Source: a bacterium
Lineage (GTDB): Bacteria > UBA8248
Assembly (NCBI GenBank): GCA_965207065.1
Contig: OZ242260.1
Span: 704,001-768,000, forward strand
Reading direction: 5' to 3'
Length of the DNA: 64,000 nt
Positions 15,739 to 23,842 of this stretch are shown piece after piece. Position 1 is the stretch's first letter; every line of letters starts with the position of its first letter. A model generated the notes under the pieces. That model was not told where the DNA came from. It did no database searches and worked only from the letters and a program-made list of their open reading frames with translations. Made by a program: the position numbers and the translations under genes.

Positions 15739-16922
15739 CGCTTCTCCGGCCGCAGGATTTTTTCGGTCGAAACGTAGCGGCCGCCCTCTCCGATGACGGT
15801 GAGGAAAACGGCGTCCGAACCCTGGTTGTCGTCTTTGCCGTAGCGGAGCTTGAATCCACCGAGGTCGATGGTGGCCGCGCGGTTCAGACCCTCGAGAAGA
15901 CAGGCGCGATCGGGCTCGCGTCCACACAGTTCGAGGGCGCGGATGGTCAGTCTGCCGGCCATGTAGCCCTCCAGGGAGACGAAGCTGGGAACCGCTCCGG
16001 GCTTGTGAACCTCCAGATCCCGCCGGTAGTCCGCCGCGACCTTGAGATTCTTCGTCGTCGGGAACGGAACAACCTGAGTGACGTAGATGCCGACGCCGGC
16101 GGGGCCGAGTTCATGTACGAGCGCATTGCTGCCCACGAAGGAGAGCGTCACGAAAATCGGATTGAACCCCGTGTGGCGAGCCCAGGCGATAAAGGAAGCA
16201 ACGGGTTTATAGGCTCCCACGAGGACCACGGCCCCGGGGTTTGCGCGTCTGATGTCGAGCAGGGCCGTTTTGACCGCCGTCGTATTCCGTGGATAGACTC
16301 CGGTGACCGCAGGCTTCAGATTGCGCCGCTCGAGTGCGCGGCGAACGCCCCGGTAGCCCGCCAAGCCGAAAGAATCGTCCTGGTAGAGCACGGCGATCTT
16401 CTTGACGCCCAAGTCCTTGATCAGCCGATTCACCATCTCCTCGGTCTCCTGGAAGTAGGAGGCGCGCAGGTTGATGATGTTTTTCCATTTGGGATTGCGC
16501 AAGAAGGCGGCGCCGGTGAAGGGCGCGATATAGGGGACGCCCGCTTTTGCGGCGACCGGAGTGGCCGAGCGCGAGGTGGGCGTGCCGACGGCCCCGATGA
16601 GCGCGAAGACCTTGCTCTGTTCTATCAACCGGCGGGTATTCAGGATGGCGGCTTCGGGTTCATACGCATCGTCGAGGGAAGTGAGTTCGAGCCGGCGTCC
16701 GAAAACGCCGCCGCGCACGTTCGACGCGCGAAAGGCGGCTTCGATGCCGAGGCGCATTTCCTCGCCCAGAGCCCTCGCGGGTCCGGTGAAGGCGGCGGAC
16801 TGGCCGAAGAGAATCCGGTGGGGGGAAACCCCGGGCACGGCCGCTTGCGCTCCCGACACCGAGCAGATTATCGCTGCAGCAAGGAGGATAAGCGTCCGGC
16901 GGATTCTGAGCGAGAGGCTCAT
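15735..16922 (-). CDS. periplasmic substrate-binding protein (LivJ/Peripla_BP_6-like), orphan
   Basis: Signal peptide; GQSAAFTGP, LDDAYEP, GAVGTPT, RASY, YQDDSFG and SLEGY motifs. No permease or ATPase gene in the operon. Confidence 0.88.
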   Translation of the reverse strand: MSLSLRIRRTLILLAAAIICSVSGAQAAVPGVSPHRILFGQSAAFTGPARALGEEMRLGIEAAFRASNVRGGVFGRRLELTSLDDAYEPEAAILNTRRLIEQSKVFALIGAVGTPTSRSATPVAAKAGVPYIAPFTGAAFLRNPKWKNIINLRASYFQETEEMVNRLIKDLGVKKIAVLYQDDSFGLAGYRGVRRALERRNLKPAVTGVYPRNTTAVKTALLDIRRANPGAVVLVGAYKPVASFIAWARHTGFNPIFVTLSFVGSNALVHELGPAGVGIYVTQVVPFPTTKNLKVAADYRRDLEVHKPGAVPSFVSLEGYMAGRLTIRALELCGREPDRACLLEGLNRAATIDLGGFKLRYGKDDNQGSDAVFLTVIGEGGRYVSTEKILRPEKR

Positions 16923-17341
16923 TCACTCCTCCGCTTGACAAGGCGCATGTGGTTCTTGTTCTCCTCCCGTCGATAAGTCACTTCGTCCATCATCGTTCGC
17001 ACCAGATGGATGCCGAGCCCGCCCACGGCACGGTCCTCGATAGTCGATTCCGTGTCCGGGTCGGGGGCGTCGGTCAGGGGATCGAACGGACGGCCGCTGT
17101 CAATAATATCGATGACCACCGACTCCGCGTCCGAGAAGAGTTCAATCTTGATTTCACCTTCTTCTCCTTCGCTGCTGCCGTGGTGAACGACGTTGAGCAC
17201 CAGTTCTTCGAGCACGAGGTCGACCTGGAATTCGATGTCGGGCGGCCAATCCTGCTCGCGGCTGAATTCCCCGATGGCGGATTGAATGCGCGGGAGATCG
17301 GCGGCTTCGAACCCCATGGTCAATGAAAGTTTCGCGCTCAT
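16919..17341 (-). CDS. anti-sigma factor Ser/Thr kinase (RsbW/SpoIIAB-like)
   Basis: EELVLNVVHHG (N-box), IDSGRPFDP and GGLGIHLV motifs. Confidence 0.92.
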   Translation of the reverse strand: MSAKLSLTMGFEAADLPRIQSAIGEFSREQDWPPDIEFQVDLVLEELVLNVVHHGSSEGEEGEIKIELFSDAESVVIDIIDSGRPFDPLTDAPDPDTESTIEDRAVGGLGIHLVRTMMDEVTYRREENKNHMRLVKRRSE

Positions 17342-18552
17342 TCGCTCCCCCCGCGGCGGTAAAGGGTCAGACAGGTGATGTCATCGAACTGGGGCGCCCT
17401 GCCTGCGAATTCCTTCACCGCGTCGAAAATCTTGTCGTTGATCTCCTTGGCGGAGGACGGCGACGCGCCTCCGAGAATCCCCAGAAGGCGATCAAGGCCG
17501 AATTGTTCGGTCTTCACGTTCTCGGCCTCCGTCACGCCGTCGGTATAGAGAATGAGGGCTTCGCCGGGCGCGAGAGTCGCATTGTACATGTCGTAGCTGA
17601 ATTCCGGCGCGATCCCCAGAGCTACTCCCGGTTGCTGGGCAAGCAGGCTCGATGAGCCGTCGGCGTGAATGATGACCGGGGGGTTGTGGCCGCCGTTGGC
17701 ATACACCATTTCTCCGGTCTTGGATTCGAAAAAAGCGAAGAAGACGGTGACGAACATCGCGGCCTCGTTGTTTTCCTGAAGCAGCCGGTTCACTTCGCTG
17801 AGCACGTCGCCGGGCCGGAGTAGACGATTCACCTCGCCGAGCACCTCGCCCGGATTCGCGCGCGCGACGGCGACGCTGTTGAGCAGCGTGCGGCTCGACA
17901 TCATGAAGAGCGCGGCGGGCACGCCCTTGCCCGAAACGTCGGCGACCGTGATGCCGATGCGGTCGCCGCCGAGGTTGATCACGTCGAAGAAATCGCCCCC
18001 CACATCCCGGGCCGGCACCATGCCAGCGTAGATTTCGTAGTCGGGGCTCTCGGGAAACTTGGTCGGCAGGATCGACTGCTGCATCTTGCTGGCCAGGTCG
18101 AGGTCACTTCTGAGAGCGACCAGCTTGTCGCGCGCCTCAAGGGCTTCGCGCAGCATGGCGAGGTGTTCGAGGGTCCGATCGATGGTGATACGCAAATCCT
18201 CGAAATCGATCGGCTTGGTGACGAAATCAAACGCGCCCCTGTTCATCGCCGTGCGGATATTCTTCATGTCCCCATACGCCGAAACGACCACGGAACGCAC
18301 GTTGGGGTCGACCGAGGGGATTTGCTTGAGCAGCGTCAGGCCGTCCATCTCCGGCATGTTGATGTCGGTGAGCACCATGTCAATAGGATCGCCGCCGTTC
18401 TCGTTCAAGCGTTCGAGCGCCTCGACTCCGTTGCGCGCGAATACGAACGAATAGCGGCCCCGCCGAATCTCGCGCCGCATGCGCTGCAGCACGAGTTGTT
18501 CGAGATCGGGCTCATCGTCCACCACGAGTATCCTGTGGGGCTCTTCCATCAC
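17338..18552 (-). CDS. response regulator fused to SpoIIE/PP2C phosphatase (RsbU/RsbY-like)
   Basis: REC domain (VVDDE, TDINMP, KP), then VGGDFFD, ADVSGKG, NGGH, YTDGVTEA and DDIT. Confidence 0.93.
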   Translation of the reverse strand: MMEEPHRILVVDDEPDLEQLVLQRMRREIRRGRYSFVFARNGVEALERLNENGGDPIDMVLTDINMPEMDGLTLLKQIPSVDPNVRSVVVSAYGDMKNIRTAMNRGAFDFVTKPIDFEDLRITIDRTLEHLAMLREALEARDKLVALRSDLDLASKMQQSILPTKFPESPDYEIYAGMVPARDVGGDFFDVINLGGDRIGITVADVSGKGVPAALFMMSSRTLLNSVAVARANPGEVLGEVNRLLRPGDVLSEVNRLLQENNEAAMFVTVFFAFFESKTGEMVYANGGHNPPVIIHADGSSSLLAQQPGVALGIAPEFSYDMYNATLAPGEALILYTDGVTEAENVKTEQFGLDRLLGILGGASPSSAKEINDKIFDAVKEFAGRAPQFDDITCLTLYRRGGSE

Positions 18553-18989
18553 GACCTCCCTTCCGTCAACATCTTGTCGCGCGCCTCGAACGCCTCTCGT
18601 ATCTCCCCGAGATGCTTCATCGACTTGTCGATGGTATTCCGCAGGTCCTCAAAATCAATCGGCTTGTTGAGGAAATCGAATGCGCCCCTGTTCATAGCCG
18701 TGCGGATGTTTTTCATGTCTCCATATGCGGAGACGATGACGCAGCGCAGCTTGGGGTCATATGCCGGAATTTGCTCGAGCAAAGTGAGGCCGTCCATCTC
18801 CGGCATGTTGATGTCGGTGATGACGATGTCGATTCCATTGTCTCCGCTCAGGCATTCGAGCGCTTCGACCCCGTTGCGCGCGTATACGAACGAATAGCGA
18901 CCGCTGCGAATCTCGCGCCGCATTCGCTGATTCACGAGGTCTTCGAGGTCCGGTTCATCATCCACCACGAGTATCCGGCAGGTTTCCAT
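18549..18989 (-). CDS. stand-alone response regulator receiver protein
   Basis: VVDDE, TDINMP and KP motifs; near-duplicate of the N-terminus of the next gene. GAGGAG upstream of ATG 18989. Confidence 0.88.
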   Translation of the reverse strand: METCRILVVDDEPDLEDLVNQRMRREIRSGRYSFVYARNGVEALECLSGDNGIDIVITDINMPEMDGLTLLEQIPAYDPKLRCVIVSAYGDMKNIRTAMNRGAFDFLNKPIDFEDLRNTIDKSMKHLGEIREAFEARDKMLTEGRS

Positions 18990-19403
18990 TTTCCTGACTA
19001 TCTCCTCATTGCCCCTGCTGCGCTCGCCCAGCGGATCCGACAAATACGAATCCCAGCTAAATGTATAAAAGACTTACCCTTCGCGCAACTCATTTTTTAA
19101 CTTCACCCATGCAATCCGAGGAGCGGAGCAGCGGTTTGCAACCCTCTGAAGCCCAGGCTCCTACTGCGCACGACCACGGCTCGACACCACTGCTCCAGCG
19201 GATTTCATCCATCATGAATCCTCTCCCGCGAGCAACTCGGCCTCGCGAGCCCGTTAGCAGACCCTGGGCCGAACGGGGATAAGACCTCGAATATTTCATC
19301 TGCCGCCTGCTTGTCCCGACCCTGGTGTTTGCGTATCTTGAGGCGCGACCCATCGAGTGGTCCTGAAGCCGCCGACCACCGCAACATCGAGAAAGGTTCC
19401 TCC

Positions 19404-21816: not shown

Positions 21817-22092
21817 GTGCTGATCGGAACCCTTGGCGCTCAATGTCGTATCCTTCCCGGCCGGCAAGCGGGTCTGCGGTGGAGCGGAAACCCATGCTCG
21901 ATATGCTTCGTAGCGGATAGCCAAGTTTCTCACACCACTTCCGGCCCCTCAAGAAAAAAACCCTGCGAAGGATACCGACGGGCAAAATAGCTCATCCGGC
22001 GCGATGTCAGGGATGAATTCGGGGTTGGGGGGGAGCTTGAGGGGAAAAATAGCATAATTTATGTTTTTTTCCGGCGAAAGGTTATATTTTTA

Positions 22093-22120
22093 TTGACGAG
22101 GCGATCACGGCGCATATACT
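22093..22120 (+). promoter_or_regulatory. sigma70-type promoter TTGACG-N16-TATACT upstream of the NHLP precursor
   Basis: Near-consensus -35 and -10 boxes, preceded by an AT-rich UP-like tract (22081-22092). Confidence 0.65.
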
Positions 22121-22262
22121 TTCCTTAAGTTGTTATTTTTTTCCGGAGCGAAGAGGCGGAATATCACCGCTCTCAGACGCTTGCTGCCGCATGGCCCCCC
22201 GGCCATGGGAGGAATCTCACACCACCCGCAATCGGGCGGCATTTTGTGGAGAACGCGAAGCA

Positions 22263-22550
22263 GTGAAAACCATCGAGGAAGTAAGAGAGGGTATCATCCG
22301 AAAAGCCAGCGAGAACGAGGCGTTCCGCTCCGAATTGCTTACCGACCCCAAGGCCGCCATCGAGAAGGAACTGGGGGTCACCATTCCCGAGGGATTCAAG
22401 ATCGGCGTGCACCAGGACAACCTCATGAGCATCAACCTGGTGTTGCCGCCTGCCGAATTGAGCGAGGCGGACCTCAACGCCGTCGTGGCCGGCTCGGGGT
22501 CCATGCTGGACCTTGCCAGCGCCTGGAACAGCTTGAACCAGAACTCCTGA
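22263..22550 (+). CDS. NHLP-leader (nitrile-hydratase-like) RiPP precursor peptide, 95 aa
   Basis: IIRKASENEAFRSELLTDPKAAIEKELGVTIP...VH....LVLPP..ELSEADLNAVVAG matches the NHLP leader pattern. Predicted core SGSMLDLASAWNSLNQNS. GGAG RBS before GTG 22263. Confidence 0.9.
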   Translation: MKTIEEVREGIIRKASENEAFRSELLTDPKAAIEKELGVTIPEGFKIGVHQDNLMSINLVLPPAELSEADLNAVVAGSGSMLDLASAWNSLNQNS

Positions 22551-22747
22551 TGCGATATACCGAAACAGTTCCATAATTTGCTCGACAGGTTTGCCGGAAA
22601 ACCCCGGGAGGGGCAGGTGCGGGAAACCTCCTTGCGGGTTTATGCGGCTCTGCGACCCGCTTCACTGAAGGGAGACCAAGGGGCCGAGTTTGCTCATCGT
22701 CGCCTTGATAAAAATGGATACATCCTGCTCAGAAACAGGATTAGACG

Positions 22748-23842
22748 ATGGCTGAGAATTTCGGGGATGTCTTTCCCAGGCTGCGCCGCTTTATTCCATC
22801 CTCCCTGCTCGACGGCCCGTGGCGGGGTCGCCTGGAGGAGCGCGTCGGTGAACTTCCGGGTTGGCTGACGCTCAATTACGCGGCGTTCGAGTTCCGGCTG
22901 GGAGACCCTGCGCCCGCCGCCGATTATTTCGTATCGCTCGCGCCGGGGCGGCCGTCTTTGGAGTATTTCGTTCGTCAGGGCGAGGACGCAAAGCCCGATT
23001 CCCCGGAGGCGGCCCTCGGCCGGGTCTTCGCCCGCATGAACGGAGTGGCTCCCCCTTCCGAACCCTCTCTCGCCGGCTGGTTCAGGGCGTCGATGCTCGA
23101 ATACGACATCGCGGAGGTCCCTTCGGACCTGAACCCGGCCCCGGGCGTATTCCTGGCGCTGCAGCCCGAGTCAGAACTGGATAAAGATGTCGCGGGTTCG
23201 AGAACCCCCGACCGCCTGGCCGCCGCCATAGCGAATGCGGTCGGGTGGGAGGAGGACGAGGAGGAGCGCAGATCCGTGGAGCGGGTCTTCGCCGCCTTGC
23301 CCCGTGACGGCGTGGTGGACCAGATCGGCGCCGTGGCGCAGCGAGAGCCGCGCTCCATACGCCTCATCATGGACGGGTTGAAGCAGCGAAACATGCCGGC
23401 GTTGCTCAAGCGGCTGAAGTGGGAAGGCTCCGCCCGGAAGGTGATGGACATTCTGGAGGAGATGCGTGACGTGACGCCCGTCTTCCGGCTGGCCGTGGAC
23501 GTCGCCGCGAACGGGGTGGGTCCGCGCCTGGGCCTCGAGATGTACAGGCCGAGGAAACCCTCGAACCTCGACTACTGGCTCACGTCCGGGCGCAACGCCT
23601 GGCGTCCCGTCGTGGACTACCTCGAAGAGATGAAATGGTGCCTGCCGGAGAAGGGAGCCGGGCTGCGCGCCTTCCCGGGAATCGAGCGGCTCTTCGAGGA
23701 AAAAGGCATGTCCATCCTCTACAAGGGGATCAACCACTTCAAGCTCTCGATCGAGGGCGACGCCATCGAGGCCAAGGCCTACGCCGCCCTCGCCTACTTC
23801 CGGCTCTACGCCGACTCGGAGGGTGAGTCCGGGCAGGCGTGA
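22748..23842 (+). CDS. uncharacterised 364-aa protein, candidate RiPP maturase (possible ABBA-fold prenyltransferase)
   Basis: Long ORF with host-like codon usage right after the precursor. Motifs FEFRL, LEYD, PGVFL, QIG...IRL, AVDV...GPRLGLE and HFKL...EAKAY. The function is inferred only. Confidence 0.55.
   Translation: MAENFGDVFPRLRRFIPSSLLDGPWRGRLEERVGELPGWLTLNYAAFEFRLGDPAPAADYFVSLAPGRPSLEYFVRQGEDAKPDSPEAALGRVFARMNGVAPPSEPSLAGWFRASMLEYDIAEVPSDLNPAPGVFLALQPESELDKDVAGSRTPDRLAAAIANAVGWEEDEEERRSVERVFAALPRDGVVDQIGAVAQREPRSIRLIMDGLKQRNMPALLKRLKWEGSARKVMDILEEMRDVTPVFRLAVDVAANGVGPRLGLEMYRPRKPSNLDYWLTSGRNAWRPVVDYLEEMKWCLPEKGAGLRAFPGIERLFEEKGMSILYKGINHFKLSIEGDAIEAKAYAALAYFRLYADSEGESGQA

Follow-up and report, generated by a model that had tools for sequence, protein, structure and literature searches.

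What does a protein of 364 residues, assigned to no named family, do beside the gene of a ribosomal peptide precursor? The question is raised by a 64,000-nucleotide stretch of bacterial DNA (contig OZ242260.1 of assembly GCA_965207065.1, positions 704,001-768,000, GTDB lineage UBA8248; hereafter the window), in which a gene for an NHLP-type precursor of a peptide made on the ribosome and modified after translation (RiPP) is followed, on the + strand, by the gene of the 364-residue protein (22748-23842). An earlier note, made from the letters alone, had taken the pair for a minimal RiPP locus and had guessed that the second gene encodes an ABBA-barrel prenyltransferase modifying the core Trp. 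Based on the results presented below, the window enzyme is probably a leader-guided indole prenyltransferase acting on core residue Trp88, a reading to which we give a probability of about two in three.

Predicted fold and conserved residues of the 364-residue protein

The motifs from which an ABBA barrel had been guessed (FEFRL, LEYD, IRL, GPRLGLE, HFKL and EAKAY) are all found in the 364-residue protein. Its AlphaFold2 model, built from a 60-row alignment, has a mean predicted local distance difference test score (pLDDT) of 91.9 and a predicted template modelling score of 0.90, and the order of elements assigned by DSSP (HHHEE / HHEE / HHHEE / HHEE / HHHEEE) corresponds to five alpha-alpha-beta-beta units. 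A Foldseek search of the PDB with this model gave 72 matches at E ≤ 1e-3; the matches listed, at 8-16% identity, are all aromatic prenyltransferases, namely TleC (E 1.7e-6, template modelling (TM) scores 0.53/0.55), EpzP, AmbP1/3, PriB, NphB, AnaPT, IptA, CymD, MpnD, CloQ and FamD1. An independent VIA-align search of 48,161 representative PDB chains reached Z ≥ 8 for 19 chains, every one a prenyltransferase (PT)-barrel enzyme, and the first chain of another kind, an unrelated designed barrel, scored Z 5.5. The highest scores belong to indole enzymes of the dimethylallyltryptophan synthase (DMATS) type (MpnD, Z 16.6; DMATS1, 15.8; FgaPT2, 15.4; CymD, 15.2), and MpnD aligns with residues 1-352 of the model at a root-mean-square deviation (rmsd) of 4.2 Å over 296 residues. 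NphB, CloQ, EpzP and AmbP1 form a second group (Z 12.4-13.6, with NphB at 13.3 and CloQ at 12.4), and the cyanobactin type follows with PatF (12.2), PagF (11.7) and DciF (10.8). The model thus shows a PT-barrel (ABBA) fold, and the guess of the earlier note stands in that the strong structural relatives of the five-unit model are only ABBA, DMATS and cyanobactin prenyltransferases; the kinship has to be adjusted, the predicted fold being nearer to the DMATS-type indole enzymes than to the cyanobactin peptide prenyltransferases.

The family is large and unnamed. A word-indexed search found 101 relatives of the 364-residue protein, all unnamed or "hypothetical", and phmmer, run exhaustively on 1.84 billion representatives, matched 981 of them at E ≤ 1e-3 and 311 at E ≤ 1e-10; the family numbers at least 981 representative clusters at 50% identity. 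A second profile search gave 78 proteins, among them hypothetical proteins of Archangium, and a Pfam domain in none. Eight longer or atypical members carry no fused domain in a Pfam scan, and the family profile compared with itself gave a single insignificant match (E 0.13) as a sign of internal repeats. Among the prenyltransferase profiles, Trp_DMAT (PF11991) was matched neither by the window protein (E ≤ 1) nor by 60 members (E ≤ 10), and a scan of the whole genome for it also gave no match, as did its controls; PTase_Orf2 (PF11468) and the cyanobactin-type profiles gave no match to the window protein in Pfam or NCBIfam. Nor was polyprenyl_synt matched, and the model, a beta-barrel, differs from the all-helical isoprenoid synthase fold. 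Two look-ups with protein language models, taken as leads only and later upheld by the fold search, returned named clusters of ABBA type only (Trp_DMAT, 0.90/0.89; DUF5838, 0.89; PTase_Orf2, 0.88).

Among 62 members, with identity down to 23%, E48, H330, K332 and Y345 are conserved at 100%, D59, D120 and K343 at 98%, E118 and R205 at 93% and D251 at 90%; R199 and K302 are nearly invariant. Most of the conserved residues lie on predicted barrel strands, and their i/i+2 pairs (E48/R50, E118/D120, H330/K332 and K343/Y345) point to one face of the strand, which in the model would be the barrel lumen.

Pairing with NHLP precursors and the core Trp

The precursor gene (22263-22550, + strand, GTG start, stop included) lies within an enclosing open reading frame (ORF) at 22191-22550, and the GTG at 22263 gives a product of 95 residues. 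This form aligns with positions 3-77 of the 77 in the TIGR03793 model (leader_NHLP) and scores 64.6 bits, the curated cut-off being 50.9, so that the precursor is a member of the NHLP leader peptide family, in accordance with the earlier note. The GTG start (VKT...) is retained among orthologues of the Nitrospinota clade (12 distinct GTG-start sequences). The leader (22263-22493, + strand; 77 residues, delimited by the NHLP match and the precursor alignment) has an L-x4-L motif and an AG end of double-glycine type (...ELSEADLNAVVAG), whose final G is an invariant column among 40 hand-picked precursors. The core that follows (22494-22547, + strand; 18 residues, from the same alignment) has a variable N-terminal half and a clade-conserved C-terminal half of the NAWNSLNQNS type; its composition is as previously described, with one Trp, five Ser, three Asn and no Cys, and the unmodified core has a calculated monoisotopic mass of 1893.853 Da. 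The proposed acceptor, Trp88, is encoded by the TGG at 22524-22526 (+ strand) and was chosen from the sequence and from the conservation of Trp across cores.

The association expected between homologues of the enzyme and Trp-containing NHLP precursors was found. Related loci were collected by a scan of one genome per species (23-row alignment), which returned 44 loci, and NHLP genes in them were sought with a profile built from the two precursors of this genome. At least one NHLP precursor lies within 6 kb of the enzyme in 42 of the 44 loci, almost always co-oriented and with up to 13 per locus. Members of a C39-ABC transporter family occur in 23 of the 44, the C39-ABC protein, a second ABC protein and HlyD being confirmed with Pfam on example loci, and many loci have no candidate tailoring enzyme except the PT-barrel protein. 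Within the 4.48-Mb genome itself there are two NHLP matches above the cut-off (five at E ≤ 0.1) and two copies of the enzyme family, and they pair one to one, each above-cut-off NHLP gene lying at most 200 nt from one family copy. These results show that the pairing of the PT-barrel family with NHLP precursors is near-obligate.

When 127 precursors were cut at the double-glycine column of the alignment, 85 unique cores resulted (median length, 15 residues). Trp occurs in 81 of the 85; it is the C-terminal residue in 46 and lies within the last three residues in 54. It makes up 8.9% of core residues versus 0.06% of leader residues, and 39 of the 42 loci have Trp in every core. Trp88 is also the sole invariant core column in the alignment of the 40 hand-picked precursors, which is an illustration and not a test because the rows were selected. 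The cores of precursors paired with the PT-barrel family are thus strongly biased toward Trp, the only residue that recurs in them; no other is common to all four clades of the family tree (described below).

The second family copy and the srp cluster of the genome

The second copy of the family (G000:C1:1414437-1415489; L008 8420-9538) is 31% identical to the window enzyme. It lies directly 3' of a 772-residue protein in which a leader-binding domain is fused to YcaO, and a precursor ending ...AVSAG-LCCCW converges on it. Both belong to an srp-type cluster (G000:C1 ~1414000-1429100; loci L008, L053 and L055), judged complete from its gene content: an SrpE-like precursor, the PT-barrel paralogue, the leader-binding/YcaO fusion, an 812-residue FA_desaturase/GlnE-like fusion, an NHLP-fused cyclase-like protein, two ABC proteins, the sole C39-ABC transporter of the genome and a Trp_halogenase-family gene. 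In the available parts of the srp papers, to which the statements on srp here are limited, SrpC cyclodehydrates the SrpE core LCCCW and SrpI brominates its C-terminal Trp at indole C6 (PMC10858898, PMC10286304, bioRxiv 10.1101/2023.06.09.544420), and cyclodehydration and Trp bromination are the only chemistry described. The published LCCCW core starts after the same AG site as the window core (PMC10858898). By its gene content, the cluster of the second copy matches the published srp clusters. Among 13 metagenome loci of the paralogue, a convergent precursor was found in 11 (10 with LCCCW and one with LSCCL), and the other two are short contigs.

The cyclase-like gene of this cluster encodes a 446-residue protein (L008 14345-15688, that is, G000:C1:1420350-1421645, - strand) with an NHLP-like N-terminus (41.9 bits on the NHLP model, below the cut-off), a Pro-rich linker and a cyclase-like domain. 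Its model has a pLDDT of 77.5 overall and mostly above 90 in the C-terminal domain, which resembles class II terpene cyclases (drimenol synthase, E 1.1e-11; MstE, E 7.8e-10, TM 0.55/0.68) and also matches single-domain proteins similar to squalene-hopene cyclase. Pfam SQHop_cyclase_C is passed by two of four scanned homologues, and the copy in this genome scores 17.6 bits, below the cut-off. The protein has a D-L-D-S-T stretch, with D222, D224 and S225 invariant and T226 nearly so, which we take to resemble the DxDD acid motif of class II terpene cyclases. Its 1110 homologues are highly conserved from phylum to phylum, the 120 listed showing 76-97% identity, and the cyclase-like domain is also encoded close to members of the PT-barrel family in L044 and L047. 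A protein of PT fold beside one of terpene-cyclase fold in a single RiPP cluster gives independent contextual support for isoprenoid chemistry. At L047 4282-5554 (+ strand), an NHLP precursor ORF whose core ends PQPDW overlaps, in another frame, a cyclase-like domain homologous to this one; a frameshift within an NHLP-cyclase fusion, or the presence of two distinct genes, could account for the overlap.

Proposed reaction and alternative explanations

If the window enzyme is a peptide indole prenyltransferase, the two genes would form a compact RiPP module in which the enzyme binds the structured NHLP leader and/or the L-x4-L region and positions Trp88 at the barrel mouth. The conserved basic residues would hold a diphosphate, and the prenyl cation that it yields would be transferred to the indole of Trp88; the donor would be a prenyl diphosphate, with dimethylallyl, geranyl, farnesyl and geranylgeranyl diphosphate (DMAPP, GPP, FPP and GGPP) as candidates. 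Finally, the C39 domain of the distant srp-cluster transporter would most likely cut after AG and export the lipidated peptide. From fold, family and context we infer the prenyl transfer with its donor and position, the catalytic activity, Trp as acceptor and the dependence on the leader; processing in trans and the fate of the seven-residue tail after Trp88 are presumed likewise. The predicted complex of enzyme and precursor, run without controls, gave ipSAE values of 0.28 and 0.21, below the mark of 0.32, and weighs on neither side.

Several points weigh against this proposal. The 364-residue protein, unassigned in the earlier note, is placed in no known family by its sequence, with no match in Pfam or NCBIfam up to E = 1; 60 members scanned singly against Pfam at E ≤ 10 gave scattered chance matches and no ABBA family, and the family profile gave 0 matches among PDB sequences at E ≤ 10. 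A shared PT-barrel fold is no proof of activity, and PatF, itself a PT-barrel protein, is reported to be inactive. Judged by conservation and strand position, E48 is only a candidate counterpart of the Glu that binds indole in DMATS enzymes, and R199, R205, K302, H330, K332, K343 and Y345 are candidates for their diphosphate site. In addition, two of the 44 loci (L048 and L051) have no NHLP gene within 6 kb, four of the 85 unique cores lack Trp, and in the clade of the window Trp is internal, followed by seven conserved residues (...NAWNSLNQNS), and not the last residue as in most other clades.

The points on family and fold also speak for the strongest alternative, that the protein has the PT-barrel fold and is no prenyltransferase, serving as an inactive leader-binding scaffold or chaperone or carrying out another Trp reaction with a non-isoprenoid substrate: it has no family membership by sequence, fold alone does not give function and PatF, reportedly inactive, is a precedent. 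On the other hand, the 981-cluster family keeps its charged and aromatic strand residues invariant or almost so, as would be expected of a conserved active site; the 19 structural relatives at Z ≥ 8 all belong to the prenyltransferase family; and a terpene-cyclase-like partner adjoins the paralogue. We consider this explanation unlikely.

Slightly less probable again is that the prenyl group goes to another position of the core than Trp (Ser/Thr, Asn, a Tyr-like residue or the new N-terminus) and that Trp is kept for recognition or bioactivity. The evidence from fold and context is identical for this explanation, Ser and Asn abound in the window core, and cyanobactin prenyltransferases act on several residue types; however, Trp alone recurs in the cores, no other residue being shared by the four clades, and the nearest structures are indole prenyltransferases and not those of the cyanobactin type. 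That the enzyme prenylates free tryptophan or another free indole, with the precursor adjacent by chance, would suit its nearest structural relatives, which act on free Trp, indolactam or diketopiperazines, but is very improbable given the co-oriented NHLP genes that accompany it in 42 of 44 loci, where a C39-ABC exporter is often present and further tailoring enzymes are often lacking, and given the pairing of both above-cut-off NHLP genes of the genome with both family copies. Prenylation of Trp88 under guidance of the leader is the reading that we retain as probable.

Comparison with known systems

The DMATS-type enzymes (MpnD, CymD, IptA, PriB, TleC and the fungal FgaPT2) match the model over the whole chain, at Z 13.9-16.6 and an rmsd of 4.2-4.8 Å over 284-306 residues. 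They have the five-fold alpha-alpha-beta-beta barrel in common with it, and indole is the likely acceptor for the window enzyme too. By contrast, identity is only 6-12%, Pfam Trp_DMAT is unmatched, and the known enzymes use free Trp or small indoles, whereas the window family is tied to leader-bearing ribosomal precursors.

Peptide substrates are known for PT-barrel enzymes of the cyanobactin F-family (PagF, PatF and DciF) and for the lanthipeptide enzyme MppC, both of which resemble the proposed role of the window enzyme. The F-family enzymes show lower structural similarity to it (Z 10.8-12.2) and no sequence-family match. In the available text of PMC12715784, cyanobactin prenyltransferases are leader-free and act on macrocycles, whereas MppC, dependent on a long Nif11-like leader, attaches a geranyl group to Trp at indole C5. 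The precursors of the window family differ from the cyanobactin type in being linear NHLP peptides, with a locus that contains no macrocyclase. MppC is the closest mechanistic analogue, as far as analogy goes; its mpp cluster is described, in the part of PMC11791876 available, as combining an SrpI-like halogenase with a prenyltransferase plus a terpene synthase.

In PalQ/PalX of Paenibacillus alvei, an NHLP-type precursor with a conserved C-terminal Trp is served by a single prenyltransferase, and the leader enhances the reaction (PMC10853753, partial text). PalQ belongs to the all-helical isoprenoid synthase superfamily, whereas the window enzyme is predicted to be a beta-barrel; because the folds are unrelated, the likeness is one of function and not of homology, and PalQ/PalX is by analogy the closest functional counterpart. 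Leader-dependent Trp prenylation on long Nif11 or NHLP leaders is thus on record for MppC (PMC12715784) and PalQ (PMC10853753). The classes of peptide prenyltransferases in the available text of an April 2026 review are the CaaX type, the cyanobactin F-family PT barrels and the trans-isoprenyl diphosphate synthase (trans-IDS)-like ComQ, ChrPC and PalQ (PMC13290415).

The srp system (SrpE, SrpC and SrpI) has its leader family and its habitat in common with the window locus, and the paralogue adjoins an LCCCW precursor. The window locus itself differs in lacking YcaO, halogenase and core Cys, the combination of LCCCW, YcaO and halogenase that marks srp. Gene names of srp and prenyl terms are absent from PMC12426817 and PMC12537861. 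Full-text literature searches, whose scope did not include the founding srp paper, a polycyclic isoprenoid RiPP paper (Chem 2024) and supplements, turned up no account of the family; a name for the paralogue or for the cyclase-like gene may already be given in the srp gene tables and in Supplementary Fig. 1 of PMC10858898.

Distribution and clades

The 44 loci come from Nitrospinota, SAR202/Dehalococcoidia, Gemmatimonadota, Latescibacterota, Alpha- and Gammaproteobacteria, Binatia, Spirochaetia and Vicinamibacterales. A quick tree with support from the Shimodaira-Hasegawa-like approximate likelihood ratio test (SH-aLRT) contains four well-supported clades: one of Nitrospinota (16 rows), with a single precursor and a core of the window type; a clade of Chloroflexota; one of Gemmatimonadota and Latescibacterota; and one of mixed phyla with many precursors ending in Trp. 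Several phyla within one clade suggest horizontal spread of the family. Among 40 sampled relatives, some with incomplete genomes, 15 of 22 genomes of the same genus have one to eight family copies, and none was found at E ≤ 1e-10 in the 18 sampled genomes of other genera. The family is expanded to eight and four matches in two of the same-genus genomes (G010 and G002), and three of the eight in the former contain an in-frame stop (TAG or TGA).

In the Gemmatimonadota and Latescibacterota loci (L027-L030, L049 and L052), an extra cytidine-deaminase-like gene and a WelO5-like Fe/2-oxoglutarate enzyme are present, together with a protein of 461-478 residues that has a weak alpha/alpha-toroid match (E 3.4e-4), and the cores end ...NCEWGHDHHDEYHVPLGGP; these loci look like a more decorated sub-type. 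At L023 5146-5514 (+ strand), a second, diverged precursor copy lies 5' of the normal one (68 versus 118 bits), with a degraded leader and a long C-terminal extension, and it may be decaying.

Layout and surroundings of the locus

A sigma-70-like promoter candidate, TTGACG-16 nt-TATACT (22093-22120, + strand), lies upstream of the precursor gene and agrees with the consensus at 10 of 12 positions, as the earlier note had seen; the scan gave two sites per 2.6 kb versus 0.6 ± 0.7 in shuffles, and the candidate is a consensus match only. The spacer between the two genes (22551-22747, + strand; 197 nt, ending ACAGG...ATG) is conserved in ten orthologous loci, with 81% mean column identity and constant length. 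Folding of a 203-nt spacer stretch as RNA was no better than in shuffles (z = 0.31), and an Rfam scan of the whole 64-kb window, spacer included, gave nothing at gathering scores. Contigs from RNA libraries (four runs of three studies) cover 22141-22440 in the region of the precursor gene and 22604-23417 in that of the enzyme gene, and indicate presence in the libraries, not transcription, start sites or level; the parts without cover (22441-22603 and beyond 23417) carry no meaning. Of 14 sequencing runs that hold at least half of the sampled words of the stretch, 7 are labelled sponge metagenome.

The ORF of the 364-residue protein is the sole co-oriented neighbour of the precursor gene, and no C39 peptidase-exporter was found inside the window; on both counts the earlier note was right. 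The flanking genes encode a xanthine/uracil permease, cytochrome c' and an amidohydrolase, and farther off are two long ORFs taken by eye only, without a domain scan, for gatB and gatA. No other RiPP enzyme adjoins the locus, be it YcaO, a halogenase or a macrocyclase. The view of the locus as a very compact cluster therefore holds for its two-gene layout and not for its self-sufficiency: it is probably not self-sufficient, because leader removal and export would need the sole C39-ABC transporter, whose C39 domain (G000:C1:1426420-1426800, the only one of the genome) lies about 700 kb away inside the srp cluster. No prenyl-diphosphate synthase adjoins the locus either, and the two of the genome are near 0.51 and 0.53 Mb; this is neutral, because housekeeping pools could serve. 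Elsewhere in the window (16919-19043, - strand), three regulatory genes lie side by side, for an HATPase_c_2 protein, for a fusion of response regulator and SpoIIE/PP2C phosphatase and for a response regulator on its own; in our reading they may form a partner-switching module with an anti-sigma-type kinase, with no apparent tie to the RiPP locus.

Significance of the family

Prenylated Trp peptides are rare, with ComX, the PalX products, kawaguchipeptin and the MppC products among the known ones, and they are sought after because lipidation alters membrane behaviour and activity. Trp-prenylated RiPPs and PT barrels are thus already known; what appears to be new is an orphan, DMATS-like and NHLP-coupled family of such size. 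A wider picture, possible and on balance doubtful, is that the family carries out Trp lipidation of hypervariable NHLP peptides throughout the sponge microbiome, as a natural combinatorial library with up to 13 precursors per locus in at least eight phylum-level groups, and that in the srp clusters, themselves widely distributed, the paralogue acts with an NHLP-fused class II terpene cyclase to give brominated, thiazoline-bearing peptides with a cyclised terpenoid on Trp. The parts of the srp literature available describe no such terpenoid.

The relatives of the gene pair, spread through sponge-associated bacteria, point to a large, unstudied group of lipid-tagged peptides. If this is true, genome-mining tools now overlook a whole class of lipidated RiPPs, and what the well-studied srp clusters finally produce would have to be reconsidered. 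The many single-enzyme loci would each hold a simple, leader-guided and Trp-selective catalyst of peptide lipidation, for which the two-gene module of the window is about the smallest available test case.

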